Shown here piece after piece: positions 10,227 to 39,404 of a stretch of 64,000 nucleotides of DNA. The notes under the pieces were generated by a model. The model worked only from the letters and a program-made list of their open reading frames with translations. It searched no databases and was not told where the DNA came from. The translations under genes were made by a program, and so were the position numbers. The DNA comes from Marsupella aquatica (lineage: Eukaryota > Plantae > Marchantiophyta), in contig OZ316892.1 of assembly GCA_973895155.1 (NCBI GenBank), forward strand, positions 24,947,233 to 25,011,232. Reading direction: 5' to 3'. Within the stretch, counting starts at the first letter, position 1. Every line of letters begins with the position of its first letter.

Positions 10227-10266
10227 GGTCGTGATGGGAATGGTGCATGTTTAAATCCTATGATCC
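10227..10266 (+). pseudogene. 5' piece of the PIF/Harbinger transposase interrupted by the Gypsy element
   Basis: GRDGNGACLNPMI(P) joins in frame to MWGVSCGSIVNY at 39405 once one ATCC TSD is removed. Confidence 0.75.
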
Positions 10267-10595
10267 TGTCACACCATTCTAGGTAGTGTTAGAGTGTATC
10301 GTACTATCTAGATCTGTATGTTTGGTATGTGTGCTATATGAGCCGATACGGTTCCGTTAGGTTTGTGTGAGAGGGTACTTTTCACTTGTGAGGCATTGAA
10401 AGGTCATCTTTCAATGTTGAGCCTTAGAGAGAGAGGAGCTTGAGTGGCTATGGTGGCTGTGAGCTCCGCTTGTGTAACGTGGATTCCTTGAGTAGTGCAA
10501 GGTGCGTTGGCTTAACATACGTGTGTGATCGGATCGGTGCGGGATCGATGGGGTATTGTTGACCGGGATCGTTGTGCCGATTGTTGAGGAGATTA
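10267..10595 (+). repeat. Terminal repeat A1 (329 bp)
   Basis: Colinear with A2 (38952-39280), roughly a dozen substitutions by eye. Confidence 0.95.
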
Positions 10596-10606
10596 CATTG
10601 AAAGAT
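10596..10606 (+). promoter_or_regulatory. Putative self-priming primer-binding site CATTGAAAGAT
   Basis: Starts immediately after A1 homology ends and is the exact reverse complement of ATCTTTCAATG at 10406-10416 inside A1. No TGG-type tRNA PBS is present. Confidence 0.7.
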
Positions 10607-11323
10607 CATGAGCTTCAAACTCTGTTGTGCGGACAGAAGCTCAGTCTGAGTTTGTCGTTGACGGTGACGGTTCGTGGTAGCTCGAATCAATTGGATTTGT
10701 GTTTGACCCACGGATCTTGAATCGTTGGTTCTATTGTTTGAGTACACCCATCTCGGGGCTATTCCCAACTGCGAGCGCTTAACTGGCAAGTTCTCATCCC
10801 ATCTTGTGTACACACAAGCTTTCACAACTTGTTGTTTAGATTCAAGGGCCAGGGGGCTTTATACACTTTCCGGTTTGCTTAGAGCCTTGTTTCGGGCCAA
10901 ATCAAAGGCTCTTTAAAGGTTTTTGATAGTTCTGAGTTCATCTAAATACACAGATTGAACCAATTCTGCATGGTTTCTCATCTATAACATTGGAACATCA
11001 TGAAACCTATTATGAAGGCCTTCATTGAACATTATGAATATTTGTTTGATCAATGTGTGATCACTCCTGGTGTGGAGAGTTAGTGTTTGACTATTCTTGT
11101 TGATTGAATCCTCTCCACACTTGTTTCCTGTTTATGCGCCATGTTGGTTCAGTATGGGCGCTTGATTCCATAGGAGTGATCCGAGTTTGCAACCGGACAT
11201 TCTAGTGTGTTGTGTATTTCTCTCCTGGTGATGTTGGAGTGATGCCCAACACACCATGGTGAGTGCTTGTGGTGCTGACAGGGACAGATTGCCCTTAGGG
11301 TTAGCACATAGATTAGGTTAGGG

Positions 11324-12708
11324 TTGGTCACCACGGATTCTTCTGGTGCTGCTGGGTTACCCGATGGACGACGGACCGGTTTTACTCGGAGTGGGGCGCA
11401 GTTTTGGCCAGCGGCATTGGTAGCAGTCAACAGTGCAGCTTTAGACAGTGATTCCGATGAGGACTCAGTGACCAGTTCTCCTCGTCATCAAGTGGTTGCA
11501 CCTTTGTTGTGGGATATGGACGAGATGTACGGGGCTACAAAGGGCCCACAACGATACTCTGGTGCAGTTGGCACAATTGATCTGGATGACTTCATCCAGG
11601 AGTTTGATACGTGGTGCGATATGCAGACATTGCGTAACGCCACGTTGTTTACCCCTTTCATGGCATGGAAGGGATTATTTCAACATTTGGAGAGGCCACC
11701 CATGGATGACTACCATGAGTTTTGGAAGACTCATTTGGTTGAGATTGAGGCATGGAGGCAGCATTGGTCGCCTAATTACGTGTCCATCACCTATGGCACT
11801 AGTGCGGCTGCCCAACCCATTGCCATAGTTGCTGCTTCTTCTAGCAGCACTAGCCAGAGTGGCACACCATCCACCAGTAGCACTCCAGTAGCATCCACCG
11901 CTACTCCTATCGGTGTGATTATGATAGGAACTGGAGTTGCGCCAGCATTTAACCCTGTGATGGAATTCTTTGAGGTACTGAAGCAGAACTATCAGGGTGT
12001 GAGAACTGATAAGTTGAAGGGTCTCCAGGAGTTCCAGCGCAAGACTGGAGAGAGTCTACGTGAGGCATACACTCGTATGCGCAGATTGATCACTATCACC
12101 AAGGGAGTGACAGAGGCTCATGCAGTCCAGTTTTGGTATGCAATTCTGGACAGAGAATTGCGACGTAGAGTGAGAGATGTCACTTTGCTTAGGGATGCAG
12201 ATCACTCTACTTAGGGATGCAGATCCCACATTAGCAGTTGTTTTTACACTTTCTGAGCGCATTGAGCTCAATATGGTGAATGAGAAGGTGATGACTTCCG
12301 GATTTGCCAAGGAAGCACCAAAGGCTGCATCTACATCCACACCACAACCTACTGCACGGAAGAGCTATAGGGAGAAGCCTACTGCACGAGAGTCTACCAG
12401 CCAGAGACCTGTGCCCTCTCATGCTAGACAGCAGTCAGGATGTTGGACCTGTGGTGGGGATCATGCACAAAGATATTGCCCAGATCATAGAGGATCAGGG
12501 GGAGCATCAGCGCCTGATCAGCGACAGTGTGATCACTGTGGAGCTCCTGGACACACCAAGGATAGGTGTTTCTCACTCCATCCTGAGTTACGGAGAGGAG
12601 GATCCTGTACACATGATCAGGGAAGAGGAGGAGGAGGTAGAGGCGGTGGATGTGGTCGTGGCATGCCACATGCAGGGAGACAGGGAGGTGACGATGCCCC
12701 TGCTGTAA
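11324..12708 (+). pseudogene. gag, 5' part (capsid-like region and two zinc knuckles)
   Basis: FQRKTGESLREAYTRM (major-homology-like), CWTCGGDHAQRYC and CDHCGAPGHTKDRC. Frameshifted by a 22-bp tandem duplication at 12181-12224 and cut by the solo LTR at 12709. Confidence 0.85.
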
Positions 12709-15206
12709 TGTGAAAGGGCCCAAAACCGGGTGTACTTAGTGATGACTTATAATTGCATATATAAGTAGAAAGACAAGTAGGTGTAGTAAAAGTGTTTGGA
12801 TTTTCAAATTTTTTATTTTTGTTAGTTCTAATAAATGGATGCGACAACCGGAGGCCGGAGTTGAGAGGGGTGTCGGGCAGTGATGTATGACAAGGGAACC
12901 ATTGAGGGGGTACAAGGAGGCCACAAGGCAACCCGAGGACTTGGAGCCAAGGTGTGGGCACCTTGGAGGGGTGGGGGCTGGTCGGAGGCTCCACATAAGG
13001 CGCAAAACAGGAAGAATGACCAAAATATAGAAAACATTGAAACTTAAAACAGACGTTGTTGCGCTAGTACTATTCCAAACATTGTCATATTTGGATTCAT
13101 TTTGAAGCCCTCAATGAGCCCCATGTGAAACTGAGGTTCTCTAGTTGATTTTAGGTCTATATCAAACAGTGACATCTCGAGGGACCTCAACGCCTGTAAA
13201 ACAATAAACTAGGCAATCTTGGAGTAGTGATGGTGGGAGGGCCCTTAGAAGGAAGGGGTTCTCACACTTGTGTTCCCCTTCACCCTTTGTGTGGTCCTCA
13301 CATGGTTTTTGTTCTCTTTCCCTTCCCCACTCCGTAGAGGGGCACTCTGTAGAAGAACACATCCGTAGAAGGGGCCCTCACACTTTCTTCCTTCCTTTCT
13401 TTCTCTATTCTCACTTGTGGGGTTTCCACCCATACCTAAACCCTAAACCCTTTCCCTCTTGTACTTGCTTTGAACGTGTGTACACACCCTGGTTGTACAA
13501 ACATCAGATTTTCGACCATCTCAAAATCATGAGTCTATGGGCTTGTTGGAAATAGCTCGCCGAGCTGAATCCAACAATGTGTCACACGGCCGAAACGGAG
13601 CTAAGACGGGGAAGATACGACAAATCGCATTTTTTTAGAATACGAGGGTTTTGAGGCCGTACGGACGTCTGTACGGAAGGAGGTCCCGGCTTTGCAAGGG
13701 AAGGAGGAGGTAGTAGCACATACGGGGAAACCGTGACCCGTGTTTTGCAAAGCCGGGGGAAACGTGTTGTACGGACGAAACGAAGGGAGACGGTGCCCCG
13801 TAAAAACTTAAACGATCATATTTTGGCCGTTTGACATCCGTTTTGTGCACCGTTTATGGAGCCATGATCAGGAAGAGGAGGGCTCCTCAGATATGTTTTC
13901 AGGAATAAATTCTGAGAAAATTTCAGTTTCGACAATTATAGGGGCCCCCTCCTTTTACAACAAACCGGTGGTGGCGAACAGGAGGATCGGGGCTCAAGCC
14001 AAGGCACCGTGAGTGAGGAGGAGGAGGACTGATGAGGAGACCAACTCACGGGGCTCAAGCCAAGGCACCGTGAGTGAGGAGGAGGAGGACTAGGGTAGCC
14101 GTACGGACCTATCGTACGACCTCTGGATTTTGAAACTTTTTGGAAGGGTGCACTCACGGGCTTGTTGGAAAGAGCTCGCGGAGCTGATTCCAACAAGAGG
14201 CAGCGCTCCTCAAACGGAGCCAGGATGAGTAAGTTAGGGCCCGGCGAAGTTGGTAAGTAAGTGATACTGAAACGGCCATAACTTGGTCATTTGGCGTCCG
14301 TTTCAAGAGCGGTTTTGTGATTCATGATCAGGGGGAGTAGGGCTACCCAGGGGTGAGCTCAGAGGTGCAATCGGAGTGGCACCTAGTTTCGGCAATTATG
14401 GGGTCCCTTGCATTTTTTGCGGTTCACGAAGTGATGTTGGGGTGCCGTCGAAGGCACCGTCGGTCCCATTGTTAGATTAGGGTTTTAGGAGCATGTGTGT
14501 GCCGCATGCTTTAGGATTAGGGATTTTCTTGTGTGAAAGTTTATGCAGGGTTTTAGCGGCGCCGCTAGGGTGGCCGCCACCATGGTGATCCCGTGAGGGG
14601 TGCTTTGGTGTGTTTTTTTTAGTATTTAGGGGGAGAGCCTCGTAGTGAGGGGGGGAACTCAGTCTAGTGTTTGCTTAGGGAAGTTAGCTCATAGCTAGAA
14701 GAAGGAATCAAGCCAGAGTAGTGAGGTAGAGGTGTAGCACTTGCCCCAATGAGGCAGTAGTTGGGCAGACGGCAGGAGGTCGGGTTGTCCTTGCAATGTG
14801 TTACGACGTTTTGCCAAAAGATATGGATTTGGTTTGATTCCTCAAGTTTTGGTGTGATGTTACCTTTTCTGGTTGACGATTGTGTTCTTTCCCCAAGAAG
14901 CGTCTAAGGAATCCTTGCACGGTTTGGTCAACCATGTGAGTAGGAGGGGTGGTGACAGCACTCCACCAACGACCAGTAGGAGTGTGTGTGTGGCGTAGTC
15001 CATGGGACTTGATCAAAAGTAGAGTGGCTAGTCGGTAGACTTGATCAAAAATTACATTTCCGAGAGCGGAAATAAACATATTCATCCTACATGCAATAGA
15101 ATTCTAATAGCATCCCTCCACATTCCCATCATACGATAACAAACAATTTTAGTATGAGTAAATACGTATTTAATTGTCGTGTAAATCATTTGATAAGCAG
15201 GTGACA
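12709..15206. mobile_element. Solo LTR (~2.5 kb) inserted in gag
   Basis: TG...CA ends and 5-bp TSD TGTAA (12704-12708, 15207-15211). Removal restores in-frame DAPAV-TIDPKDAKIAQLEQQ. No coding domains inside. Confidence 0.9.
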
Positions 15207-15211
15207 TGTAA

Positions 15212-15479: not shown

Positions 15480-16526
15480 CACTAGTAGAAAACAATGTAT
15501 TTTATGACGGAAACAATGACTATTAATCAAGTCTTTTTAACAAAATAATGACACAATCGTTCTCGTCTTTCCAGACGCGTCACAACGGACATTTTGGTCA
15601 CGGTCCTTCTGGACATATGACACTAAAAACATGTGGTCATTTCATACTATCCTAAATGACGGTTTTTATGATATGGTCATAAATGCTGAACGGTCCAAAA
15701 TGACGACACAAATCACCATCGACGGTCAATTGTTGTTGACCGTCGACGGTCCCCGTACCCAATCACACAACAACACGTGGCAATCAAAAAACAAATAACA
15801 TTGGTCATTTTGGACTTGTCCAAAATGACGTACATTATATAACAAATCAAATAGTGACACATGGTTCAAAGAGGATTCACCATTTGGCAATATATTTGGG
15901 TCATTTTGGACGTGTCCAAAATGACTATGATATAAACAAGTCATATTAAGACACGTGGTTCAATTAGGAGGAGACACATAAAGATACCCATTAGTCATTA
16001 ATGACATAAAGTGAGTCATAGTGGACTTGTTTATAATGACCATGAGAGCGGTCATTGTATATGTCATTCTTTGAATCATTTAGTCTATGTCTTTAATGAC
16101 CAGAGTTGAGTCATATTGGTCACAAAGATAGTTGTGGATAATGACCATTACATCAGTCATTCTAGCCAGTCATTTAGGTGAAGTATTCAATGATTTGGAG
16201 AAATTCAAATTTAAGTGATCATGATAGATAAAACTTCATGTCATTCAAAAATCATACATTACAAAGCCATTCAATAGATTTGCTGAATGAAAACCTAAAG
16301 AAACATTCCATATATATCACAAATCCAATTGACATTCATACAAGATACCTTCATAAGTCTCACACTAACTATTGAACTCAATGCAAATTTATGAAACAAA
16401 ATTACATTGGCATCAATAATATTAGATTGTCAATTGTTACAACCTGACATACCAATCACTCTGCATGTTTATAGAAAAACAGAGTTGATTCTATCATGTC
16501 TAGTGTTTCTTGACAGAGTGCTATTT

Positions 16527-19330
16527 CTATTGCTTTTTAAGCAATCTAGAGTTCCATAGGGCATTCATCCCTTTCACATCAGATAATTTGGACTGTTTCT
16601 CCCCTGCATTGGCAAATGGCAATGCCACATCTACAAACACTTCAATCACACGCACTCGCAAGAAAGGGCTTTCAAAATCTGCACAATGAAACTTATCTTC
16701 TCCTGACAGCCCTGTCACCTCACCTTCTGCCACTATCATGGAATTGTCCACAATGCTCTTCATCTTCACCAAATCTCCTCTTGCAAACTGTGAACAACAC
16801 ATTTTGTTAAAAATGCAATAAACAGAAATTGAAAGATAGAAGAACACTCAAATCAAACACACATTTAAATTTGCAATGGGATTAGGAGACTGCATTGGTT
16901 TCTTTTGTGCAGGTGATGCATTTGCTGAAGATCCTTTCTTCCTTTTCTTCTGAGTGTCATCATGCTCACTTGGAACAGGAGTTTCTTTTGGCAACTCAGA
17001 TGATTCTGGGGTTACATCTAGTGTCAACTGAGTCGACTTATCCTCTGGCAACTGAAAGGCATCTGAAATGGCTTCTTTGGGCAACTTAGATGGCAAAAGG
17101 TTCACTTCCAATTCAGTTTGCTTCACAGTACTGTTAGCTGTGTCAGTTGGTCTTCCCTGCGACACAGGAGGCTCCCCTAAAGATGCTGTCATAAAACACA
17201 CACAAGAGAAATGCATAAACAAACATGTATACACCAGCAACATATAATCACACTAGAACATGCAAGAACATTATAAACATACAATGACATATATACACCA
17301 CAATAATTACATTGAATGGACAGTGAATAGATGATAGAGAATTTTACCTCCATTATCACCTGAAAAAGTAAGAGATCGTTTTCTACTACCTTCTTTGGTA
17401 GTTGTAGTCAACTTACTATGACTAGGAACAAATGTTGGAACTTGTGCATTACTGGAGTGATGTGCCATCCATATAGTCATCATGTTTGTCAACTCCTTCA
17501 CAGTGCCTTTCAACTCATCGACATCCAATTTGACAGCCCCAATGGCAGTGATATCTTCTTTTGAATGTGGGGTCTGTAAATGAACCACAAACCAACACAA
17601 CATTCTCATTGTCAAACTAACAAACGACACAACACTCTATCAAATGGAAAATGATGTACAAATCAGATTGGAATGGCAATACTCACAGCTGATCCATGTC
17701 TGTATCCTTGCCCCAGTAAGCTAGCACTTTTACCCTCCCCACTTGCCAATGACGGGCTCACCTTTGCTCCCAAAAAACTACCAGTCTGACCTTGTGCACT
17801 TGCCAATGATGGGCTCATTGTCACCTTTGGCAATGAACCCTGACTACCAAGGTTTTCTTTCAGGTCAGATATACCTGGGCTTGATCCTCTCTTCTGCGTC
17901 TGTTCAAACACACAATGAATGAGAAACTCAGAGTCTGTTTTCATCAAGATTCACAAACAAGACATAATTGATAGTGAAAATGATATAGACAGTTTACCAT
18001 TCTCTTTGCTGCTGCAGCATGCCCTCCTCTACCAAAGTGACTGGTATCTTGCACTCGTGCTCTTTTATCAGTCATTTGTTTACTCAAAGATATCAATGTT
18101 GGACTGGTGAAATGAGATACCAAAGCTGCCCATTTCTTTGGATCAACACCAGATGGCCCAGGTTTGGTTGGATCCTCATTGCAAACTTTCTTCCAGTAAA
18201 CATGCATTTTATGGCGCTCTCTCTTCAATATGCCACGACAATGACTCTGGAATTTGTTGTCAATAAATTCCCCACCCACATACTCCCACTTAGCTGCCAT
18301 GTTCTTCCACACACTGGTTATATGAACTCATGGATGTTCAGTCCATTTTGGCTTTGATACATCAAAGATTCTTAGTACATTGCCACGAAGTTCCTCCAGC
18401 CAGTACTGTTTGTTGAGATTAGAATCATCAATATCATTGTCATAAATCTGCATTTCACATGCAATGTCAATTCATAACTCTGGAATTTATGCATAGTCCA
18501 GGTTTTATACACACAATAACAGAGAGGATCTATGTCTAAATCTACATTCAAAAAAAGTACAATACTCACTTTAATGTGTTTGGGCAAATCTCCCTGATTC
18601 CTTCGTACTTTGGCAGCATTATCAAACATCTTCTTAGCATGCCTTTGTTCCTTGCGCATCTCAGAGGCCCCGCCTGCAATGCACACACATGCTTTCACTC
18701 ATAAAATATGTACATTGAAAAGTTGAGCAAATGCACTTGCATATGCATGACGAGCAGATTTGTATTACCTGAAGATCCTCTGGAATGTAGTACGTCAGAT
18801 TGACCTGATCTGCCTTCAGATGCTGATGGAACCACTAAACAAACACACACCACCAAGCACTTCAATGAATTTTAGAAAAATGTAGAATATCAACTTCCAA
18901 ACACACTGAAAAGGTATATCAGTACAATCCACTCACTTTCATATAACAGTCCAGTGTCTGGGTCTTTCCAACATCTCACCAGCCCACCTCCACCAGGCCC
19001 AGTCTTCTTAGGACCACGATTTTGTTTCTGTACCTACATCATGGACAACGTAGGCATATTAACAAATACTTTGAAACAAGGACAAGGATTTAGGGTTTAG
19101 GATGATGAAGTTCAAGCATTACCTGCTGTTCACTCTCAGGTTCTGACCCTCCAATGTTAGAATCCTCAGTGTCATACCCAGCACTGGCATAGCCATCATC
19201 ACCAGACTCTGCCATGTTCACCTTGGTAACTTGTGATAGTCTAGAGCTCCTCCTCTTTGGCAATGTTCCAGTTGAAGTACCTTTCACCAATGCAGGCTTT
19301 TCTCTCTGTCGTTGTACATGTGTGGTTGGG
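16527..19330 (-). pseudogene. CACTA TnpA-like multi-exon gene (exon boundaries approximate)
   Basis: Exon-sized ORFs with KRERHKMHVYW..PSGVDPKKWAALVSHF..SKQMTDKRA..HFGRGG (Ptta/En-Spm-like) and a C-terminal LVKMKS..IVAEGEV..RVIEVFVDVALP..ALW (Tnp1-like). Confidence 0.7.
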
Positions 19331-19919
19331 CCTCTAAGGAACAAAACAATCATCAACATACACCAAATGCAGATCAAACATACATGCAAGCAGAATCTAC
19401 AACACAGTAATAATGGTACTTATGTACAGGTTCCATACTAGTACGAGACCAATCTGGAATATGAAAACAGAACATGAACCTGACAACTCCATATATCTAC
19501 TGAATCAAATTTGCAACAGACATTTTAACACACACATCAGCATGCAGTCTGGCCCCAGTCCTAGATCACGCATAATGCTGACATTATGCTCTATGTTTTG
19601 CTTTCGGGCCTCCTCATAAGCATTCACAGGATGTGACAACCCTTGCAATCGTCCTTTCACAGGCTGCATTCACCAACTGCACAAATGGGCAAAACATTAG
19701 TCTGATTTCATATATAGTCCATACATGTAGTCCATCTATGGACTTCACACACCTAAAACCTATTCACTGCTTAGGCCTACCCTTTCTTGCAGATCCCTCT
19801 ACATCTTTGCCTCGTTTGGGACCAGTACTTGGTCCTGGATTTGCTCTAGTCCTACAGGCTTTAGCCAATTCAATGTGTAATTTGGCATTGTTTTCCATTG
19901 TAGCATGGAAATCAACATC

Positions 19920-22900
19920 TGTGTAATCACCTAACACCCTTGTGGACCTGGATTCTTTGTGGAGGATTGTTCTCCATGCTATCCCCTTCTCATTGGGGTG
20001 GAAGAAAACCTACTCCACTTGCTTTGGGAAAACGTAATCATTTTCTTGGACACACCTAGTTCTCTTTGGAAATTCACCTGCCAAAGACCAGACTCAGAAT
20101 ACCTCATACTGGCAGAGGATTTAGGAGTCCATGATGGATCTGCCCATTTCCCTTTGAAAAGAATCACCTCTTTCCTCAAGCTGCCGTAATTCAGTACTAA
20201 GATATCTATCAAGGCCCCTACATACTATACAGATTCTTCTCTAGTTGCGCCAGACCTGTCCACTCGCTTCTCAGTGAATGTCGAAGCCATCCCAGAATCA
20301 AAAGTGTTGAATGCACCAGAATCACAATCACTCAAACACCCCAAGGATGGAATAGTCCTCTAGTGATGCCCATAGGCTCTGCATGCCCTATACAGTCGTG
20401 CCTTCAAACTAGGTGGTGTGGAGTATGCAGATAGTAATGACCGCTCAGACTCTATCTCAAAATTATGGGTATTGACTAATGTTTGAAACCATTCCCTGAA
20501 AGGTGGCAGTTCTTGGCAGTCAAGGGGAAATTCCACGGGTTTTCTTCGATTGGCAGGCTTCCTCATCCATTCCTTCCGGAAATCCACTCTTCGTTTGGTA
20601 ACAGTCTCATTGGTAGCATCATATCTCCTACATGGCAACAACAACACTCAAGACATTAGTGCACAATCCACCATGAATATACAAACACAATGGGGCAGCA
20701 TAATTATGATCCATATGGTACAGGGTTTACATACCTGTACCATGGAGCCACTGTCTCTTCATTCTCCAATATATAATGATGCATGGCCATCATTTCAGAC
20801 CAATTCAAAGTTATCTCCTTTGCAGCCCCTTCCAAGACAATGCCTGCAACGCCAGCATCCTCCTCCAACTCCCAGGTTTGTTTTCCCTCTCCCTTAGCAT
20901 CAATCATGTATTTAGAAAGGAATCCCAAAGACTCATCTAATACATAGCCTTCAGCCATAGAAGCCTCTGGACGTGCCTTGTTTCATACATAACCCTTCAA
21001 TACCTTCAGGTTCCTCTCTATTGGGTACATCCATCTGCCTGTAACTGGGCCACACAAGTCTAATTCCTCCACTAGGTGAATCATTAAATGGGTCATGACA
21101 TCAAAGAAGCTTGGTGGAAAAATGGATTTCCACAATGCAGAGAGTGAATGCAACATCCATCATCAAATTCTCATACATTGAAGGGTCCCACACCTTCGTA
21201 CAGATCTGGCGATAGATATTGCTCATCCCAGCTATGGCCAAGTGAACCCCTTCATCAAGTAATCCCATTGTTGCCAGAGGGAGAATCTGTTGCATGAGTT
21301 GGTGGAAATCATGTGATTTCAACCCAGAGAGTTTCTTGGATTTTGTAACACACTTTGCCAAAGAACTTGAAAAACTAGTGGGCCCTTTCAAGGTCAATAA
21401 CACCTCCAAGAACCTTGTTCTTTCCTTCTTGCTCAGGCAATATGGGGCTGGGGGCATCAACAATTTGTCATCGTTACGCTTGGGAGCTGGATTGGGTACA
21501 AGCCATAGGTGTTGGCGCACTTGTAAGAGCTTCAGGTCTTCTCGAACAGAAGGAGTGTCCTTGGTCCCAATGATAGTTTGCACAATGTTGTGTGCAAGAT
21601 TCTTCTCACAGTGCATGGGATCTAGACAATGGTTAATGAGTAGTTTCTGCAGTGGACACACAATTCAGAAATTAGGGCATTGAATACAACAATTACAAAA
21701 TCTGGGCTACAAGAAGTAAACACATTTCAAAGTCATATGAAGAGATTGCAGAAATTCATTGTAGTAGTATGGAGTCTTATGTTCCAATAGGGCAACTTGT
21801 ACAGACCAGTAGCCCTCTTCACTCCATGCACCTTTATGGGGCAGCTCTCATCCTCAACCTTGGTTCCTCCCTTCAAATATTCTGTTGTCTCGTCTCCCCA
21901 CTTCTTTCTATCAGAGCTTGACATTCTACACGGTGCAGGTCGGCTCTCAATTGGACCATCAAAGTATTGTGCACTGTCTGGTCTACGAAAAAGATGCCTT
22001 GCTGCTAACCATCGACGGTGGCCACTGTACTCTAATTTCTGCAAGTGCTTAGAACCACGTGCCACACATTTTGGCCCACAGATGACACATCCTTTGTATC
22101 CAACATGTTGTTGTCCAGATATTAAACCATATGCAAGGTAATCATTGATTGTCCACAATAGCACAGCCCTTAGGTTGAAGTGTTGAGACAATCCTGGGCG
22201 TGGCAATTTGTCAAAGTAGGGCACTCCTTTCGTCCACAACAGCTCCAGCTCCTCATAGAATGGGCCCAATATTATGTCCAGCTGTTCCTCTGTTACTGAA
22301 TCAGGTCCTGGAATCAGCATAGCTAGCATGACAAAGAACTTCTTGGTGGTAAGCCAAGGAGGTAAATTGTAATTCAACAGCAAGATTGGCCAGGTAGACC
22401 AAGCTGTGGAATTATTCCCAAAGAGATTCACCCCATCAAGTGCCAACCCAAATCGCACATTCCTTGGTTCAGCTGCAAATTTCTTATCAATATTTGTATC
22501 CACATGCTTCCAAGCCTTGGAATCTGCTGCGCGCCGAACCATGTTGTCTGTGCTTCTATTCTCATGATGCCAAGTCATGAGTTTAGATGTACCAGCAGTG
22601 GCATACAATCTCTTCAACCTGGGAATTATAGGGAAATACCGCACCGCCTTCCTTGCCTGTAATGAATTCCCCACTCTCTTCATCTTCGGCTGCTGACACA
22701 CTGAACAGTTTTCTAACTTGGCAGACTCACCCCTAAAGAGCATGCAACCTTTCTCATAGACAGGGATTCTCTCATAATCCAAGCCAAGCTTTCTCAATAG
22801 CTGCTTTGCAGCATATAAGTTCTTGGGCAGATTATGCTCTGCAGGCATACCATGCTCCCCCATCAAAGCCAACAATGCATTCACTCCTTTGTTTGAGAAT

Positions 22901-28099: not shown

Positions 28100-31000
28100 A
28101 TATGCTGCATCAATGACCTCCAATATGACAAGATTAATGGCTTCCAATATGACCGCATGAATGACCCTAAACTTTTAGTCATTGAGATTGACGCACCATT
28201 TAACTCACAAATGACTCAATGAGCTCCCTTGTAACTCCAAGGAGAACCCCCCCAATATGCTTTGAAATGACCACATTTCCTGTCATTTGGTACTTTTGAC
28301 CTCTAGTATGACAGCCAAGATGACCCTAATTTGAGGTGTTTTCATTAAGGACACACCATTGTTCCAAAATGACCCAATGAAGATTTCACTACCTCTAGGA
28401 GTGCCCCCTTACAATTCCTTTGCAATTTAATAGAAAATACCCTAAATCCAAATATCGGCAAAAACATGACATACATATATAGAAGGACAATAGCCTTCCA
28501 CTAGTATTGCACTATATACCTCTTGGAGAGACAAAAACAATATTTCTTTGCCTTTGTATAGGATGGTATGCGTGATGGTGACACTTTTGGCAAATCACTC
28601 CAAAGTTGTATGACTTGGGAGTGATTTTCCCAAAGTTCCATCATGCCTTAACAATACGCAAAAACACGACATCAAAGTGCTAATAGTGCAACTAGTGGTT
28701 GGAGAATAGTAAATATAGTATTTGGCACCTAGTGGAGGGGTTGCGAGCTCTATGTGGGGCCACATGGCACTCTAGGGCCCACCTTCAGCCCTTAGCCCCA
28801 AATTGGTCATTTATGCTTGTCTTCAATGACTGCACTAGGGACACCTCAAATGACCACAAATCCAGTCATTTGACTTATGTGACAGTCCATATGACATATG
28901 TAATGACCCTATTTGTGGTCATTGGAACTTATGACACAACTTTGTGCAAAAATGACCCAATGAAGGTCAATGACCCAATGAAGAATTCCTATACCTTTAA
29001 CCAGCACACACACCATAGAGGGAAGCACCACTACCACGCCCATTCCATTGGTGTTGCACTACCTCTTGGAGGAACAAACAAATGGCTCCATTTGCCTTTG
29101 GAACATAACATATTCATCCATGATGATGCTTTTGGAAAATCACTCCAATGTTGTATGACTTGGGAGTGATTTCCCCAAGGTTGCATCATCCCTTAAGTAA
29201 TTGCGAAAACATGGCTCCAAAGTGCTCATGGTGCAACTAGTGGTTGGAGAATAGTAAGTATAGTGTCCCGCACCTATTGGAAAGGTTGCCAGCTCCATGT
29301 AGGGCCCCATGGCAGTCTAGGGCCCACTTGCAGCCCTTATCCCCAAACTGGTCATTTAGGTTGGTCCATAATGATACCACGAGGGACCTCTGTAATGACA
29401 AGGTATGCAATCATTAGATCCAAATGACTGCCAATATGACTGCCAAAATGACCCATATGGTAGTCATTGGCTTTAATGACACACCATTCCTCCAAAATGA
29501 CCCAGTGAAGATTACACTACCTATCGGAGTGGCCCCTGGCAAATCCTTAGCAATTTAATAGAATATTCCTCACCCAAACGCCAGCACAAACATGACATAG
29601 TTCAATCGAAGGACAACAACCTTCCACTGGTTTTGCGCTTACTCTTAGAGAACAAGAAATCAACTATTATTTAACTTTGAATGTGGTGGTATACATCCAT
29701 GGTGACACTTTTGGCAAATCACTCCAAAGCCGTATGCCTTGGGAGTGATTTCCCCAAGGTTCCATCATGATTTAACAAAATGCAAAAACATGGCTCCAAA
29801 GTGTTCATGGTGCAACTAGTGGTTGGAGAATAGTGGGTATAGTACCCCGCACCTAGTGGAGAGGTTGCCACCTTCATGTAGGGCCCCATGGCACACTAGG
29901 GCCACCTTAAGCTCCTAGACTCAAAATGGTCATTTCTGATGGTCCATAATGACACCATGAGGGACCTCTATAATGACCCCATATGCAGTCATTGTGCACA
30001 AATGACTTCCAAAATGACTGCAAAATGACCCTTACTGCAGTCTTTGGCATTAATGACACACTATTCCTCCAAAATGACCCAATGAAGATTACAACACCTA
30101 CTCACAATGCCCCGACACTATTCATATGCAAAATGGAGTATTCCCCATCCAAACACTGGCACCAACATGACACAATTATATCACAGGATGACAACCTTCC
30201 ATTGGTGTTGCACTACTTCTTGGAGAGACAAAAAAGGGCTTCATTTGCCTTCGGCACCGATGGTATGCATCCATGGAGACACTTTTAGCAAATCACTCCA
30301 AAGTCGTATGACTTGGGAGTGATTTCCCCAAAGGTGCATCATGCCTTAAGTAAACGCAAAAACATGTGTCCAAAGTGTTCATGGCACAACTAGTGGTTGG
30401 ACAATGATGAGTATAGTGTCCCGCACCTAGTAGAGGGGTTCTCAGCTCTATGTGGGGCCCCATGGCACTCTAGGGCCCACCTCCAGCCCCTAGCCCCAAA
30501 CTGGTCATTTGTGCTTCTACTTAATGACTGCACAAGGGACCCCTCAAATGACCACAAATCCAGTCATTTGACTTATGTGACAGCCCATATGACAGATTTA
30601 ATGACCCTACTTGTAGATATTGGTATTTATGACACCAATTTTTTCAGAAATGACTCAATGAAGATTACACTACCTCCTTGAGTGCCCCGTCACTATTCAT
30701 TTGCAAAATAGAATATTCCCCATCCAAGCACCGGCACAAACATGACACGATTACATGGAAGGACAACCGCCTTGCACTACTTCTTGCAGAGACAAAAAAA
30801 ATGGCTTCATTTCTTTTTAGATAGGATGGTATGCATCAATGGTGACACTTTTGGCAAATCACTCCAAAGTCGTATGACTTGGGAGTGATTTCCCCAAGAT
30901 TATATCATCCCTTAAGTAAACACAAAAACATGGCTCCAAACTGCTAATGGTGCAACTAGTGGTTGGAGAATAGTAAATATAGTATTTGACACCTAGTGGA

Positions 31001-32340
31001 GGGGTTGCGAGCTCTATGTGGGGCCACATGGCACTCTAGGGCCCACCTCCAGCCCTTAGCTCCAAATTGGTCATTCATGCTTGTCTTCAATGACTGCACT
31101 AGAGACCCCTCAAATGACAACAAGTCCAGTCATTTGAATTATATGACATCCCATATGACCATTTCAATGACCCTACTTGAGGTCATTGGCACTTATGACA
31201 TGACTTTGTTAAAAAATGACCCAATGAAGGTCCTAGTACTGCCAAAGAGAGCCCGCTGTACATTCCTTGCAAAAATGGAATATTCGTATACCTTTAAACA
31301 TCAGGCACATCATAGAGGGAAGCACCACTGCCATGCCCATTCCATTGGTGTTGCGCTACGTCTTGCTGAGACAAAAAGGGCTTCATTTGCGTTTGGAACG
31401 ATGGTATGCATCCATGGTGATACTTTTGGCAAATCACTCCAAAGTCGTATGACTTGGGAGTGATTTCCCCAAAGGTGCATCGTGCCTTAAGTAAACGCAA
31501 AAACATGTGTCCAAAGTGTTTATGTCGCAACTAGTGGTTGGACAATGATGAGTATAGTGTCCCGCACCTAGTAGAGGGGTTCGCAGCTCTATGTGGGGCC
31601 CCATGGCACTCTAGGGCCCACCTCCAGCCCCTAGCCCCAAACTGGTCATTTGTGCTTTTGCTTACTGACTACACAAGGGACCCCCCAAATGACCACAACT
31701 GCAGTCATTAGATTTATATGACTGCCCATATGACAGATTTAATGACCCTACTTGTAGTCATCGGCATTTATGACGGTCCATTGCTCACATATGACCCAAT
31801 AAAGGCCCTAGTACCTCCAAAGAGAGCCCGCTTTAGATTCCTTGCAGGTTGGAATATTCCTCTTCCCTAAACCCGCACCCACACCATACAGAGAAGCACG
31901 ACTCCCCTGCCCATTCCATTGGTGCAGCACTACCTCTTGGAGAACCCAAAAACAACTTTTATTTGCCTTTGGATGTGATGGTATGCATCCATGGTGACAC
32001 TTTTGGCAAATCACTCCAAAGTCGTACGACTTGGGAGTGATTTCCCCAAAGGTGCATCATGCCTTAAGTAAACGCAAAAACATGTGTTCAAATTGCTAAT
32101 GCCGCAACTAGTGGTTGGACAATGATGAGTATAGTATCCCGCACCAAGTGGAGGGGTTCTCACCTCTATGTAGGGCCCATGACACACTCGGGCCCACCTT
32201 AAGCTCGTAGACCAAAAATGGTCATTTATGCTGGTCCATAATGACACCATGAGGGATGTCTTGAATGACAACTTATATAGTCATTTGGTCAAAATGACCT
32301 CTAATATGACGACTGACATTACCCTTATTGTAGTCATTGG
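28100..32340. repeat. Tandem satellite, ~575-bp unit, about 7 copies, inside the CACTA subterminal region
   Basis: GACACTTTTGGCAAATCACTCCAAAG-like marker near 28577, 29121, 29701, 30276, 30841, 31416 and 31994. Confidence 0.92.
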
Positions 32341-32438
32341 CATTCTTCAATGACTCTACAATTATGACCGGTGTCTGGAATGACTATTGAGTATTTTAAT
32401 CTTGATATCTCTTGGGTTCTTTAATGACTCTATAAGTA

Positions 32439-32777
32439 GTCATTTATGCAATAAGTCCATAATGACTGTATGTTATTGTAAACATTGATATATCATGATT
32501 TTTAGATTGACCTTATATTTAGTCATTTATGCGACAAGTCCATAATGACTGTATGTTATTGTAAACATTGATATATCATGATTTTTAGATTGACCTTATA
32601 TTTAGTCATTTATGCGACAAGTCCATAATGACAGTATGTTATTGTAAACATTGATATATCCTAATTTCAAGATTGACCCTAGATTTAATCATTTATGAGA
32701 GAAGTCCATAATGACGGTATGTTGTTGTAAACACTGATATATTCTTATTTTCAAATTGACCCTAGATTTTGTCATTT
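32439..32777. repeat. 83-bp tandem repeat x4 (CACTA subterminal)
   Basis: GTCATTTATGC...AAGTCCATAATGAC.GTATGTT units at 32439, 32522, 32605 and 32688. Confidence 0.92.
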
Positions 32778-33166
32778 AACACTGTTGGTTAAAATGACGG
32801 AAATACATTTTTGTCATTTATCACCGTTATCCAAAATGACCCAAATAGATTTTTGGTCATTTCATTCATTGTCCAAAGTGACTATAATGGTGCTAAACAT
32901 TGATTTATCATTGTTGTTATTTATTGGGTCATTTAGGACATGTGTCTAAATTGACCATTTTAGGAAAATTGTGTCATTTTGGTCGCAGCTGTCATTACAG
33001 ACATACAAAATGACACAAAAGTTATCATTTTGTCATTTCAGTCTATTGGTCATTGTGGACAGTCATTCTCTAGTCATTCTTTTTGTGTCATTAGAAATTT
33101 TGGTCATTGATTCATTTCCGTCATTGGGTGATTGATCATAAAGGGCCCTATTTTCTTCTAGTGAAA

Positions 33167-33989
33167 GGGGGGATGCACGTCGGTAGACAAAGCTTCCTCA
33201 GTCTTTTACATGTCAGAGACAGTTGAGACTGCCTCTATGAACCCGGTTCAGACAAACCCTGATGTGGGTAAGTCGGCAGAATCAGGTAGTGATGCAGGAG
33301 GGATGACAGGTACCTTGATGGGGGCGGCTACTGCCATGGTACGCACCCCATTATTTTCAGCGACAAACATGCTGAACCTAGGAGTTGGTTCTGCATAAGT
33401 GTTCAGATTGGCAGCTACTCTCTGTGAGGACACTCCAGTGGTTGCTTCCCATGCAGAAGCAGCTTGCAGTGTTGAAGCAGTGAAGACCATGCCACCTATT
33501 GCTACTAGTGAGACATGGCATGCAGCAGCAGCAAGGTTGGTGGATTTACCAGCACGCCCTGCATTTGAGAGGACTAGGTTTAAACCTAGTGTTGTGTCAT
33601 TGGATAATCAAAGTGGTATCTTCCAATTAGTTGGGCCTTCTAGGGCAGTATACCAGCCAAAGAGAGTGTTACTGGATACTGGTGCTCAGCCCTTGATGTT
33701 GGGTAAGTCTACCATACGTGGATTGGGATTGCGTCCAGAGGATTTGGAGGATTGTCCCTTTCCCATTCAGACTTCATTGGGGGGACCTACACCTACACAT
33801 CACATTACTAGGAGACCTCTTGATTTGAGGATTCAGGAAGGTCATACCACAGATAGCTCACAGATACAGGCGCGAGCTATTCTGACTAAGGTAGAGTCAT
33901 ATGATGTGTTGGTGGGATGTACAGTGCTCTACCCCATGGGATTTATTCTTGATTTTTGGGAGGAATCAGTGTCATATAGACCTGATTGA
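33167..33989 (+). pseudogene. Gypsy aspartic protease region
   Basis: VLLDTGAQP catalytic motif and YDVLVG; in-frame stops at 33396 and 33987. Confidence 0.85.
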
Positions 33990-34374
33990 CAGTCAGGAGA
34001 TGCTCGATTGAGCAAATTGCCAGTGAAATTTAGTGGACCTATGGAAGGCCCTAAATCCACACCATTGTCTTTGGCAGTATTAGTGGTCTAATTGCTGGAC
34101 CTAATGATTTGATTGAGGGTAATGCGCATGCAGCAGATGTTCCACCATTGGAGGAGTCTCATGAGGAGCACATCATGCAAGAATTACCTGTTGGCAGTGT
34201 TGTGCCACCAGTGTGGGGCACTGCACAGGCCTTGCCATAGGCAGCTGCATGATTGGTACATGATGCATGGCGTCATGCTTTTACATCACAGTCAGGACCA
34301 GAGCAGTCTCTTGCAGATGGACCTGTGACTCTTTCACCATTGGATACCACTCCTATTGCTTGGCAATATCCACT

Positions 34375-35330
34375 GGAGGGTATTTGTTTGTTGGATCTTT
34401 TTGGTGGGATTAGCACTAAATTGGCTGCTGTTCTTCAGGCAGGAATTCTTGTGCGTCGTTATTTGTATGTGGAGACAGATGAGACAACACGGAGGGTCTC
34501 ATTGCGACATGTGGCTATGTTGGTGGATAGATATCCACAGTTGCTGCCAATGGATGCTGTTCGTGGTTATCAGCATGCACTACCTGCTGATATTTCATTG
34601 CTGGGGGCGGATCATCTGCATTGTGTTGGCCCCATTGATTTGGTGATTGCTGGTTGGCCATGTTAGGGCCAATCTAGAGCTAGAGTTGGGCATGGACTTC
34701 ATGATCCATGCTCTGTATTGTTTTGGGAGATGTTACGGGTGTTGCGTTATCTCCAGCTACATCAGACAGTCTCCAACATACATTTTGGAGAATGTGCCAT
34801 TGTTAGGTGATGATCGTAGTTGGATTGTTGCCAGTGTTCACCAGGTGAGGTCTTGGATTGGACCTACTGTGTTATTGGATGCTGCACGTGTGGGTTCTCG
34901 TGCACATCGTCCACGCTTGTGGTGGACCAATTTGATCCCATGTGAGGTGTTGAAGCGCGCATTTGATAACATTCCACGCTCACCAGCCTTAGTGGTGGAT
35001 GATATTTTGGATCCAGGGCGTCGTGCACAGGGTGTGACCCAACCTGATAGACCTCCATTGGCAGTGGTCAATGCAATTGGGCGCCCACATTGTGCATTAC
35101 CCACTCTTGTAAGCCACTCTGCTTCATATGCATTCAGAGCAGGTGGCCCTGGACTTGTGTGGGACACAGCTCTCCAACAATTAGTGGAGCCTACTGTTGA
35201 TGAGAGAGAGCGTGCTATGGGATTTTTGACTGACACCACTGCAGTTGCCTCTATGTCAGAGGGTTTGCGGCGCCAGGTTCTTGGTCAAGCAATGGATCTG
35301 AATTGTTTGACTTGGATTATCAGCTTGGGA
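34375..35330 (+). pseudogene. C5-cytosine DNA methyltransferase domain (DNMT3-like) within the Gypsy pol polyprotein
   Basis: Motif I LLDLFGGIS, II YLYVE, III DI, IV DLVIAGWPC*G (CAG>TAG), GLHDPCSVLFWE, VI YILENV, VIII AHRPRLWWTN, IX ERERAMGF, X RRQVLGQAM. One frameshift near 34770. Confidence 0.9.
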
Positions 35331-35558
35331 GTAGCTGAACAGTTGTGGATGCACTCTGCTAGAATTACTGATTGTCCCTTGGTGAGCTTGCGATCCACTG
35401 AGATAGTACTGACCACAGTTGGGGGCGAGCAGACCTATGGACCTATGGCAGGATTGGCCAAGGCTGGACAGATTGTTGAGCAAGAAGGGACTGCTCAATC
35501 TACTGCTAAATAGCAATCATCGGCTATCTCTTCTACCCTACAAAGAGATATTAGGGAT

Positions 35559-38460
35559 TTGGTGGAGAGTTGGGAACCACAGCTTGGCCCTAAGTTGACA
35601 GCGGAGGAGAGACGTTGCATGCATCGATTCCTAAAGAGTTACTGGAATTGTTTTGCATTTAGCATGAAAGATTTGGGGACATTAAAGGATCCTGGTATTC
35701 AGATTGAATTGGCTAGTGATGCGCCAATCTTTCGTAGGCCATACCGTTACAATGACATGGAGAGAACTCTGATTCAAAGCAGAACTCAAGATTTGTTGGA
35801 GGCTGGATTGGTGGAGATTTCATATGGGGAGTGTGCATCTGCCATAGTGATGCCAACCAAGAAGGATGTGCATGGCAATTACACAGATAGGCGCATGTGT
35901 GGTGATTACAGACCCATTAATCGCCAAACAAAATCTGATAGATATGCCATGCCCACACCTGAGGAGATCTTTGATGCTGTGGGGCATGCAAAGGTTTTCA
36001 GTTCATTGGATCTGAGGGCAGGGTACCATCAGCTTCCAATTAGGCATGCTGACAGGTCCAAGACAGCATTCTAGGGGATTGATTTTTATGGCAAAGATTG
36101 TTTGTATCAGTGGTTATTCTTACCATTTGGGTTGAAGAATGCACCAGTTGAGTTCCAGAGAGTCATGGATCGAATCCTTGCAGGTTTGGATTTTGTCAGA
36201 TGTTATATTGATGATATTTTGGTCTATTCTTCTACCGTGGAAGAACATCAGCAGCACTTGCAGATTGTGTTGGAGAGATTGAGAGCACATGGGTTGAAGC
36301 TCCATCCTAGCAAGTGTAAGTTCTTCCAAGACCAGATTGAGTATTTGGACCACACTATATACCCAGGGGGATTGGGTGTACAGCAGACTAAAGTGGAGGC
36401 CATTACACAGATTCCTTGTCCTACTGAAGTGAGTAGAGTTCGTGCATTCTTGGGATTGGCGAGCTACTACAGGAGGTATGTTAAAGGATTTAGCCAGCTT
36501 GCTAAACCTTTGACCATACTCACTAAGTTGGATCAAGAATGGATTTGGGGTGATGACTAGGAGCATGCCTTTCAGGAGTTGAAACAAAGGTTGGCATCAT
36601 CCCCTATTTTGAGAAGACCCATTTCAGGCAGACCATTTCAACTACACACTGATTGGAGTGGAGTAGGACTTGGAGCAGTGCTGACTCAAAAGGATGATGA
36701 GGGGAATGAGTTTGTTGTGGCTTAAGCCAGTAGATCAAACAATTCAACAGAGGCTAAGTATAGCTCGTATGAGGGAGAGTGTTTGGCAGCAGTGTGGGCT
36801 GTTGCACACTTTCGTTGCTACTTGTTTGGTAACCCCTTCACCTTGATCACTGATCATCAACCTCTTAAGTGGTTAATGGAGTCTGACAACCTTATAGGGA
36901 AGCTTGCACGATGGGCATTGTTGTTACAGGAGTATGATTTCCAGGTGGTGCATAGGCTTGGAAAAGTGAACTTGGATGCAGATGGATTAAGCCGCAATCC
37001 ATGTACCAATCAGCAGGATGAGACTGGAGCCAGATGGCATGATGAGTCAGATAAGAAGATGGTGCCAGGATGGCATGCATCTGCCTTTCTTTGTTGGGTG
37101 CCAGCATACAGTGGATCTATGGACTCTACCTCATTGGATGGAGTGGATGATGAGTCTTCAGATGTGGATGTTGGTGAGGTAACTTCTGGACAACAAGATA
37201 TTCACAATGATGTGAGAGTGTTGCAATATTTGCGCAGTGGTTCTATTGTTGGCAGTGTTGATGCCAAAGAACGTGACAGGGTTCTACAGAGAGCCAAGAG
37301 GTTTTGATGGGAGGGAAACCATCTTTTGAGAGTACTGCATGATGGTAGGGTGTTGGTGGTACCAAAATCATCACAACGAGTACATTTGGTGCGACATGCA
37401 CACGAGGAGTTGGGTCACTTTGGTGTGAAGCGCACTTATAGCTTGCTGCAGACACAGTATTGGTGGCATGGTATGCACACTCATGTCCAGCAGTTGATAG
37501 CTAAGTGTGTGGTATGTGATAGAGTGAGAGCATCATTTAATGCTCCCACTCCCCAATTGCACCCGTTGCCGATCATGGGTTTGGGATATCGTTGGAGTTT
37601 GGATTTTGCTGGTCCATTACCTCTTACCCAACGTCATAATCGGTATGTTTTGGTCATGGTGGAGCACTTCTCCAAGTGGATTGAGCTAGTGGTGTTGCCC
37701 GATAAAGCTAGTGGAGGAGTTGCTGCTATATTTTTGGATCGTGTACTCAGTCATTTTGGAGCACCAACTGAGGTGTTGACTGATCAGGGAACTGAGTTCC
37801 GTGGAGAGTTTGAGAGTTTGTGTGAACAAGCTCTGCTTGATCATCGTACTACCTCTCGTGATCATCCTGAGGCAGATGGATTACCTGAGAGAGTTGTGCA
37901 AATTGTGAAGAGAGGATTGCGTAAGTATGGCTTGCAGGTTGATCATTTGGGAGATTGGGATCTTCAGCTACCTTGGTTAGCTATGGGCTACCATTTCAGT
38001 CGGCAAGCATCACTTGCATCCTTCTCACCTTACTTTTTGCTCTATGGTAGATAGCCAGATTTGCCAGCAGCTATTCGTCGTGATGCTGCACCAGTTGTGA
38101 ACTTGGATGATCCTGATGTTTGGGTCAAGGTGTGTTCAGAGAGAGCACGGGTATTTCAGAGAGTGATGGCCATGGCTTTTGACAACCTTGCCATTGCCCA
38201 ACATCGTGATACTTTGAGGTATGCCACTATTTGTGGAGGAGGTTACCGTGCAAGCATTCGATGATTTCATCCTGGTGATTATGTTTATTTGCAGCAGACA
38301 ACACCCACAACACTTGATGTGACCGCAGGCCGGACAATCTTACGTGTGCGTGAAGTGTTGCCTTCTGGTGTCCTGATGTTGGAGGGACGCGATGGTATGG
38401 TTTGGAAGGATCATGTGCGCAACTGTGCACCATGTCACCTTCCCAACATTGATGGTACAG
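35559..38460 (+). pseudogene. Gypsy RT - RNase H - DDE integrase
   Basis: RMCGDYRPIN, LDLRAGYHQ, PFGLKNAP, YIDD; TDWS..GLGAVL, TDHQPLKW, DADGLSR; HEELGH..CVVCD, SLDFAG, TDQGTEF, ERVV. Several in-frame stops. Confidence 0.95.
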
Positions 38461-38489
38461 TAGATCCAAGCTTGGCACATGTTTGTGCT

Positions 38490-38639
38490 GGCTTGAAATG
38501 TATGTTGTGTGGATCTGCTCAGGGAGCAGCTACTATGTTGATTTGTGATAAGTGTTCTAGAGGATGGCACATGTCATGTTTGACACCACCATTGCAGGTG
38601 ATTCCTAGTGGATCATGGTTGTGTCCTCAATGTCGGTGA
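38490..38639 (+). pseudogene. PHD finger at the integrase C-terminus
   Basis: CMLC...MLICDKC.RGWHMSCLTPPL..IPSGSWLCPQC, a C4HC3 pattern in frame with the integrase tail. Confidence 0.92.
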
Positions 38640-38799: not shown

Positions 38800-38812
38800 A
38801 GCTAGGGGGCGA
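38800..38812 (+). promoter_or_regulatory. Polypurine tract-like sequence
   Basis: AGCTAGGGGGCGA lies immediately before repeat B1. Confidence 0.6.
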
Positions 38813-38949
38813 TTGTGGGTTTTGGACATGTGTGGACATGAGTTCCACTTGTATTCCATTCTCTTGTGTTTGTGATGTGGCAGTGTGACTATGTTTGGAT
38901 GTATGTGACAAGCGATGTATGTTGTGTAGCGATGTGTATGCGCACGGCA
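38813..38949 (+). repeat. Repeat B1
   Basis: TTGTGGGTTTTGGAC...GCGCACGGCA; matches B2 apart from a 17-bp indel and a few substitutions. Confidence 0.93.
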
Positions 38950-38951
38950 AC

Positions 38952-39280
38952 TGTCACACCATTCTAGGTAGTGTTAGAGTGTATCATACTATCTAAATTT
39001 GTATGTTTGGTATGTGTGCTATATGAGCCGATAAGGTTCTATTAGGTTTGTGTGAGAGGGTACTTCTCACTTGTGAGGCATTGAAAGGTCATCTTTCAAT
39101 GTTGAGCCTTGGAGAGAGAGGAGCTTGAGTGGCTATGGTGGCTGTGAGCTCCGCTTGTGTAACGTGGATTCCTTGAGTAGTGCAAGGTGCAATGGCTTGA
39201 CATACGTGTGTGATCGGATCGGTGCGGGATCGATGGGGTATTGTTGACCGGGATCGTTATGCCGATTGTTGAGGAGATTA
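38952..39280 (+). repeat. Repeat A2
   Basis: TGTCACACC...GAGGAGATTA; copy of A1. Confidence 0.95.
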
Positions 39281-39400
39281 TTGTGGGTTTTGGACATGTG
39301 TGGACATGAGTTCCACTTGTATTCCATTCTCTTGTGTTTGTGATGTGGCAGTGTGACTATGTTTGGATGTATGTGACGAGCGATGTGTATGCGCACGACA
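39281..39400 (+). repeat. Repeat B2 (right terminus)
   Basis: TTGTGGGTTTTGGAC...GCGCACGACA followed by TSD ATCC. Confidence 0.93.
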
Positions 39401-39404
39401 ATCC

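Follow-up and report, generated by a model that had tools for sequence, protein, structure and literature searches.

An internal palindrome in the split repeats of a green-plant Gypsy lineage points to integration from end-joined cDNA

Introduction

In the textbook view, both retrotransposons with long terminal repeats (LTRs) and retroviruses insert linear cDNA through its two ends, and circular forms are regarded as by-products that are usually thought to be a dead end. How a Gypsy element with a retroviral-type DDE integrase can nevertheless be bounded by sequences from the interior of its LTR is the question raised by a locus of the liverwort Marsupella aquatica. The window analysed here, a stretch of 64,000 nucleotides (contig OZ316892.1 of assembly GCA_973895155.1, positions 24,947,233 to 25,011,232), contains a decayed copy of a Gypsy retrotransposon of a green-plant lineage, in which two repeat units, A and B, are found in the order A...B-A-B within a 4-bp target site duplication (TSD). 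A first-pass annotation of the window had proposed that this family circularises its cDNA and uses its DDE integrase at an internal att site. Comparison with relatives supports this proposal by way of a perfect and deeply conserved palindrome, with the circle and the cleavage inferred from the sequences. Integration from end-joined, circular cDNA, with the integrase cutting the internal palindrome, is the probable route.

Repeat layout and boundaries of the window element

The element measures 8,944 bp once two nested insertions are removed; its total span is about 29 kb, of which about 20 kb is nested (Table 1). Repeat comparison bears out the positions that the first-pass annotation had assigned to A1, A2, B1 and B2, as well as the ATCC duplication and the polypurine tract (PPT) before B. 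A1 and A2 are 96% identical, and B1 matches B2 except for about 17 nt that are present in B1 and missing in B2. The B1/A2 joint of the window copy reads GGCA-AC-TGTC and the A2/B2 joint reads GAGATTATTGTGGG. The latter had been described as an exact fusion of the two ends made by reverse transcription. An A at the joint can be assigned to either end, which leaves a margin of 1 nt in placing the cDNA ends.

At the reconstructed empty site, the flanks form one open frame with 32 codons on the left and 105 codons on the right. Since this frame is continuous through the flanks, the element boundaries are fixed independently of the repeats. The rejoining of the frame had also been seen in the first pass, whereas the Harbinger label given to it there is weak (DDE_Tnp_4 in Pfam, E=0.007 and 0.05).

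Table 1. Features of the split-repeat element and its insertions, in window positions
Feature	Position	Strand	Evidence or remark
Left TSD copy, ATCC	10263..10266	+	
A1, left terminal repeat	10267..10595	+	first bases TGTC, right half of palindrome
Predicted self-primer ATCTTTCAATGT, likely transcript 5' end	10406..10417	+	12-nt perfect complement of the primer-binding site
Primer-binding site (PBS), self-priming type	10595..10606	+	directly after A1
Gag-like region with frameshift	11312..12708; broken at 12708, resumes 15212-15479	+	translation of the open reading frame (ORF); zinc-knuckle-like CCHC motifs
Nested TG...CA insertion, solo-LTR-like, 2.5 kb, in gag	12709..15206	.	5-bp duplication TGTAA; foreign to element
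Nested CACTA transposon, 17.7 kb	15480..33163	-	Transposase_21 E=2e-60; CACTA...TAGTG ends, 3-bp duplication AAA; foreign to element
Aspartyl protease	33399..33989	+	PF13650 E=7e-4, below cut-off; LLDTGA motif
C5 cytosine methyltransferase-like domain, between protease and reverse transcriptase	34253..35513	+	broken by stops and frameshift
Reverse transcriptase (RT)	35514..36560	+	RVT_1 E=7e-25; stops present
RNase H and linker	36726..37307	+	PF17917 E=3e-23
Retroviral-type DDE integrase, H2C2 zinc domain and core	37308..38054	+	rve E=3e-13; D-D-34-E
Integrase C-terminal region, PHD finger at end	38265..38639	+	PF00628 E=1e-11
PPT AGGGGGCG	38804..38811	+	precedes B1
B1	38813..38949	+	possible start at 38812
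Internal palindrome, predicted att site	38946..38955	.	window GGCA-AC-TGTC; relatives GACA-GC-TGTC
A2	38952..39280	+	
A2/B2 joint, predicted circle junction	39274..39287	+	meeting point of PBS-defined and PPT-defined ends
B2, right terminus	39281..39400	+	final GACA, left half of palindrome
Right TSD copy, ATCC	39401..39404	+	
Host target, Harbinger-like nuclease frame	39401..39718; continues 10167-10262 left of element	+	weak Pfam match

Termini and forms of related copies

Such a layout could in principle stem from a one-off rearrangement, a misassembly, or post-insertion recombination of an ordinary element with B+A LTRs. In the contigs assembled from sequencing runs, one contig of run X3 spans positions 39348-39550 with zero differences from the window. 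The entire B1-A2-B2 block of the window copy is not covered by any single contig among those listed, which leaves room for such an accident, as do the three collapsed contigs with a B-A-leader order described below. What bears on it most directly is the structure of other copies. Relatives were taken from the best 80 of 396 confirmed metagenome loci of an integrase-anchored search, and from run contigs for the window's own family.

B-A-B 3' ends are found in three further families and, in locus L082, in a fourth. Altogether, five families show B-A-B, at more than 20 independent sites whose ends are set by the palindrome and carry 4-bp TSDs, and the A repeats of the four families compared (the window's included) have no alignable sequence in common. 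The 51 loci with B last represent 43 distinct sites, or 42 after the contig-cut locus L036 is dropped. All 42 distinct 3' ends stop at the terminal ACA of B (a GACA-type end) and are followed by unrelated flank. They comprise 20 ends of the B-A-B type, 20 with B only, one tandem (L080), and one in which B1 is deleted (L072); L034 and L035 were scored as B-A-B by eye, L023 ends inside A, and no 3' repeat could be recognised in L040, L042, L085, and L086 because of short length or decay. On the left side, all 13 distinct intact ends, including that of the window, begin with TGTC or a decayed form of it (L010 and L011, 5'-truncated loci of one site, are left out of this count). Ordinary B+A LTRs at both ends were looked for among these relatives, and B stands before A at 0 of the 13 left ends.

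Both ends are available for 12 copies, six with the order A...B-A-B and six with the order A...B, making the second form about equally common. Their TSD is an exact 4-bp duplication in 7 of the 12, agrees in 3 of 4 bases in three, and is absent in two; a 5-bp duplication was never seen. No solo A-B unit was found in the loci, the search having been anchored on the integrase. The possibility that A alone is an ordinary TG...CA LTR was rejected, because A is never the last repeat of a copy and because the CA that follows A1, which is part of the pairing with the PBS, is absent from A2.

The family of the window copy itself is represented by contigs of four runs, which come from two studies. Among the contigs listed, B ends stop after GCACG-ACA and continue into mixed flanks (18 and 21 contigs, agreement 0.45-0.46), A begins at TGTC after mixed flanks (10 contigs, agreement 0.42), and B is preceded by the PPT or otherwise by AAGATT, which resembles the end of A (48, 18, 24, and 2 contigs). 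These loose ends are the best 24 of 525 and 23 of 105, so that a minority of ordinary ends is possible in this family. Several run contigs at window positions 39022-39296 jump from the middle of A to a point inside B or immediately before it, as copies with a shortened or diverged A2 might.

The structure also recurs in independent assemblies, which answers the concern about misassembly raised in the first pass. The A...B-A-B structure is real, programmed, and lineage-wide. With B-A-B at this number of independent sites and families, and an ordinary end never found, an accident of one locus is scarcely conceivable and can, on these comparisons, be regarded as already refuted at the level of the family.

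Named homologues come from Calypogeia, Riccia, Klebsormidium, Closterium, Tetrabaena, and Astrephomene, and no relatives were found in the viral contigs searched. In integrase trees, all split-repeat families fall with liverwort and charophyte sequences, and the Klebsormidium elements are sister to them or unresolved; the grouping with K. nitens elements has a support of 95/91 in one integrase tree and is an open fork in another. L081-L088 are eukaryotic retrotransposon contigs of the lineage that were filed in prokaryotic genome bins, where they probably represent contamination from algae. The ends of L081 overlap by 127 nt, which may reflect a collapsed repeat or a true circle. L080 carries two serial B-A-B 3' ends, either because one copy is nested in the pol of another or by tandem duplication.

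The internal palindrome

The integrated ends of these copies are the two halves of the palindrome at the B1/A2 joint. In the first pass, a GACA/GGCA-AC-TGTC dyad with loss of a 2-nt spacer had been described. The dyad stands, and its spacer is 2 nt long in 22 of 22 B1/A2 joints. In the family this spacer is typically GC instead of AC, and the window copy shows GACA-GC-TGTC in a decayed state. Accordingly, nearly all depth at position 38947 is A in run contigs of the window's family and 78-87% at position 38950 is G, giving GACA-GC-TGTC as the usual joint. In 20 of the 22 joints, departures from GACAGCTGTC are confined to G>A or C>T.

Against an expectation of about 0.7, the 888 kb of loci contain 11 exact matches to the 10-mer. 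The palindrome is found downstream of the integrase even in loci with 42-69% integrase identity (L021, L081-L084, L087, and L088), and in most of these loci a G-run precedes it by 50-150 nt. They include the distant, mostly GC-rich loci from prokaryotic bins with 42-51% identity, of which L083, L084, and L088 carry it and L087 is cut by the contig end; in these distant cases, the comparison covers the position of the palindrome. In L084, the palindrome is lengthened to 20 bp (about 1610-1635), and L078 has the two-sided variant GGCA-GC-TGCC about 1750-1770 nt after the integrase match. Since ten bases are conserved while the rest of the LTR turns over, the palindrome is best understood as a functional site.

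Coding content and the integrating enzyme

The domains are arranged in the order gag-like, protease, C5-methyltransferase-like, RT, RNase H, integrase with H2C2 and rve domains, and PHD finger. The gag-like region was assigned by position and motif because it has no Pfam match. No chromodomain was found by Pfam after the integrase, its place being taken by the PHD finger. The self-priming nature of the PBS and the methyltransferase-like domain had been missed in the first pass. The latter domain matches the Klebsormidium protein P0038 with 43% identity over 185 aa (E=2e-38), and PF00145 matches weakly in the relatives L007 and L067. The Gypsy-DNMT3 architecture thus appears to extend to the host of the window.

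The best solved relative of the integrase is Ty3 Gag-Pol (7q5b, E=1e-19). Its catalytic triad is intact, and between D and E it has a spacer of 34 residues, whereas Ty3 and the other Gypsy element of the window have one residue more. This short spacer is present in 6 of 6 clade members compared (window, P0004, P0038, P0063, L007, and L067).

Elsewhere, split repeats are characteristic of elements with a tyrosine recombinase, and such an enzyme, either the element's own or supplied in trans by an element of DIRS order, could be imagined to integrate the circle. However, a Pfam search of 71 stop-to-stop frames from four copies (window copy, L007, L067, and L028; size cut-offs 60-110 aa) revealed no tyrosine recombinase, and the integrase triad is retained across the clade. 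The action of a DDE integrase is recognisable in the TG...CA ends, in the 2-nt spacer that is lost, and in 4-bp TSDs of unrelated sequence; these traits also count against a recombinase, whose involvement is very improbable.

Priming, PPT and the origin of B2

The PBS pairs with a stretch 140-180 nt inside A, over 12 nt in the window copy, up to 21 nt in family I, 15 nt in family II, and 13 nt in family IV. The paired sequences are family-specific and covary in families I, II, and IV, and pairing is weaker in decayed copies. This is predicted to be a self-priming arrangement of the Tf1 type. A perfect hairpin with a 9-bp stem (window 10394-10416) overlaps the predicted self-primer, and short hairpins are also present in A of families I and III. 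The PPT adjoins B in every family. With the PBS at the end of A and the PPT at the start of B, standard LTR replication would produce B-A...B-A.

The terminal B2 appears to have been copied from B1 of the same copy. In family II, the B1-B2 distance is 0.063 within copies and 0.119 between copies (p<1e-4), in family I it is 0.068 and 0.084 (p=0.055), and there are no fixed differences between B1 and B2. The A2/B2 joint is flush in its modal form in 12 of 21 copies and departs from it in the other 9, which have lost small stretches, carry additional bases of the PPT, or contain an insertion; because the flush ends were defined with the modal joint known, the departures alone are informative. A variable joint is expected if it is made anew by end joining.

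An alternative origin of B2 is offered by replication as in PAT or Ngaro: the RNA would span A1 to B2, the B1/A2 joint would template the new B/A junction, B2 and the A/B joint would be inherited, and an integrase would have replaced the recombinase. The identical A1-B1-A2-B2 layout of those elements, as far as described in the consulted part of PMC4157794, and the same variant joint in the neighbouring copies L065 and L069 are compatible with this, and it would account for the missing mirror product discussed below. It fits poorly with the location of PBS and PPT exactly at the end of A and the start of B in every family, with a B2 that follows B1 of its own copy and forms no lineage of its own, and with three copies of one subfamily (L050, L051, and L073) that have three different joints. 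Inheritance of B2 is accordingly rated as quite improbable.

Mechanism of integration

Under the preferred reading, in which end-joined cDNA is integrated, transcription would start inside A1 and the 5' end of the RNA would prime minus-strand synthesis at the PBS, as in Tf1. To judge from the positions of PBS and PPT, reverse transcription would lead to linear B-A...B-A cDNA whose ends have no usable att sites. Both ends would then be joined, mostly flush and sometimes with small indels, as the A2/B2 joints suggest. The integrase would act on the left LTR's palindrome, nicking both strands after CA and so producing 2-nt 5' overhangs like those left by retroviral 3' processing. Insertion with a 4-bp stagger would follow, with loss of the GC spacer. 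The product, A...B-A-B, would be the sole form with R at both RNA ends and thus able to be copied again, while one-LTR circles cut likewise would result in A...B. This scheme is built on the termini, the TSD length, the palindrome, the two forms, the copying of B1 to B2, and the variable joint, from which we infer the circle, the cleavage, and the order in which joining and integration take place.

Several observations weigh against this scheme. Among the 12 both-ended copies, the mirror product A-B-A...B was found 0 times compared with 6 copies of A...B-A-B, which has a probability of about 0.02-0.03 under equal use of the palindromes. As a symmetrical 2-LTR circle has two palindromes, a bias toward one of them must be assumed; it is a matter of speculation whether the left LTR becomes double-stranded first or a cis element lies beside A1. 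The concerted change of B1 and B2 is borderline in family I, and the TSD is absent from two both-ended copies, L061 and L052. In three contigs (L021, L081, and L083), B-A-PBS or B-A-leader is continuous, most simply explained by repeat collapse, although a circle or an ordinary 5' LTR would fit too. A...B copies are slightly more decayed in family I (p about 0.03), though not in family II, and this form may stem from B1 x B2 recombination or short-read collapse instead of one-LTR circles.

The same att site might also be used without a prior circle, if the palindrome of the left LTR were cut on linear cDNA, both halves were inserted, and host repair then joined the loose A and B ends. This yields the identical A...B-A-B product, TSD, and variable joint, and failed repair might cause the two copies without TSD. 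It would, however, require a chromosomal break in every insertion, yet 12 of 21 joints are flush and the others have small indels alone, and A...B is not produced by this route itself. Sequence cannot separate it from circle integration; it is considered unlikely. Use of the internal palindrome by the DDE integrase, which circle integration shares with cutting of linear cDNA and with PAT-like replication, is almost certain.

Comparison with known systems

In the copy-out-paste-in transposition of IS3/IS911, IS30, and IS21, a DDE enzyme opens abutted ends with a short spacer on a circle and inserts them. These are bacterial DNA transposons whose junction is built by the transposase, whereas the window lineage carries the abutted ends ready-made in its LTR. 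A circular intermediate has also been proposed for PAT, Ngaro, and VIPER. According to the consulted sections of PMC4157794, these have A1-B1-A2-B2 split direct repeats like the window element but encode a tyrosine recombinase, in place of which the window element has a DDE integrase, PBS, PPT, and 4-bp TSDs.

The element agrees with canonical Ty3/gypsy elements in the gag-PR-RT-RH-INT order, a DDE integrase with an HHCC domain, the positions of PBS and PPT, and a TSD within 4-6 bp. It differs from them in having no two full identical LTRs with RT-defined integrated ends (0 of 13 left and 0 of 42 right ends). REXdb was built from two-LTR elements, a basis on which split-repeat elements would be excluded. 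Tf1/Sushi and Tcn1 share with the window element the Ty3/gypsy domain order and a PBS complementary to a stretch in the 5' repeat, as described in parts of PMC6317226 and PMC4600332, whereas in the window element a PHD finger takes the place of the chromodomain, Pol includes a methyltransferase, and two full LTRs are replaced by split repeats that have their att site inside.

HIV-1 integrase is able to cut the palindromic 2-LTR junction internally (excerpts of PMC1905944). The retroviral 2-LTR circles treated there and in part of PMC4372172 resemble the window lineage in two features predicted for the latter, internal cleavage of a CA-n-TG palindrome by a retroviral-type integrase and circles that give rise to integrants. 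The end-to-end junction itself forms the palindrome in HIV-1, where the route is a minor reserve, while in the window lineage it lies apart from the junction and all ends seen derive from it.

One of the closest known elements is KnitGypsy-Dnmt3 of Klebsormidium nitens, for which the legend of Fig. 4c in de Mendoza et al. 2018 (PMC5890265) notes DIRS-like A-coding-B-A-B repeats together with Gypsy domains. As far as given there, it resembles the window element in both the repeats and a Gypsy Pol with a cytosine methyltransferase. The DNMT-bearing K. nitens Pol P0038 is 57% identical to that of the window in the integrase and 43% in the methyltransferase region. Term searches of the text and supplement of PMC5890265 brought up neither a TSD or att site nor a mode of priming, the A...B form, or a mechanism (0 matches for 'target site' in the main text and 0 for 'TSD' and 'circular' in the supplements searched), and the name KnitGypsy-Dnmt3 was not found in other papers of the literature searched. 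Nor did this literature, outside which lie Repbase Reports, theses, subscription journals, and bioRxiv supplements, contain an account of an internal att site or circle integration in a Gypsy lineage. Hence, the layout, which the first-pass annotation had believed to be without a described Gypsy precedent, has already been noted once in print, while the mechanism was not found in the portions of the literature searched.

Nested insertions and neighbourhood

The nested CACTA transposon contains a PHD-like ORF at 24422-24901. It also has a tandem array of seven to eight units of 575 bp, with palindromes inside them, at 28137-32344, and repeats of 83 bp at 32379-32816. The second Gypsy element of the window (42847-57897) has a gag-pol region at 51856-57086 on the minus strand and repeats at 51681-51868/57707-57897. 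Its region holds an extra repeat pair (46314-46516/51484-51687) and long ORFs without family matches (42847-46513 and 47627-49129). A dispersed repeat with 71% identity (2759-3165 and 40616-41056) flanks the Harbinger-like region, and an ORF with a BTB/POZ domain at 6296-6910 is a possible host gene exon.

Significance

LTR finders that require two full repeats would miss such elements or place their bounds wrongly in bryophyte and algal genomes, and the presence of a tyrosine recombinase does not follow from split repeats of the DIRS kind. For DNA insertion, an integrase that accepts circles and has a 10-bp att site could be useful. The lineage would link retroviral integrases with the circle integration of the IS3 type, and as a natural, high-copy lineage with an apparent dependence on an internal palindromic att site, it makes the question of circular precursors testable on a short, defined substrate. 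On balance, an ancient lineage of green plants seems to have relocated its att site, once at the ends of the cDNA, to the interior of the LTR in the form of a ready-made GACA-GC-TGTC palindrome. It would routinely use end-joined circles for integration by its retroviral-type DDE integrase, and split direct repeats would have arisen a second time without a tyrosine recombinase. If this is true, the circular-precursor model that was abandoned for retroviruses would be the normal life cycle of this lineage.

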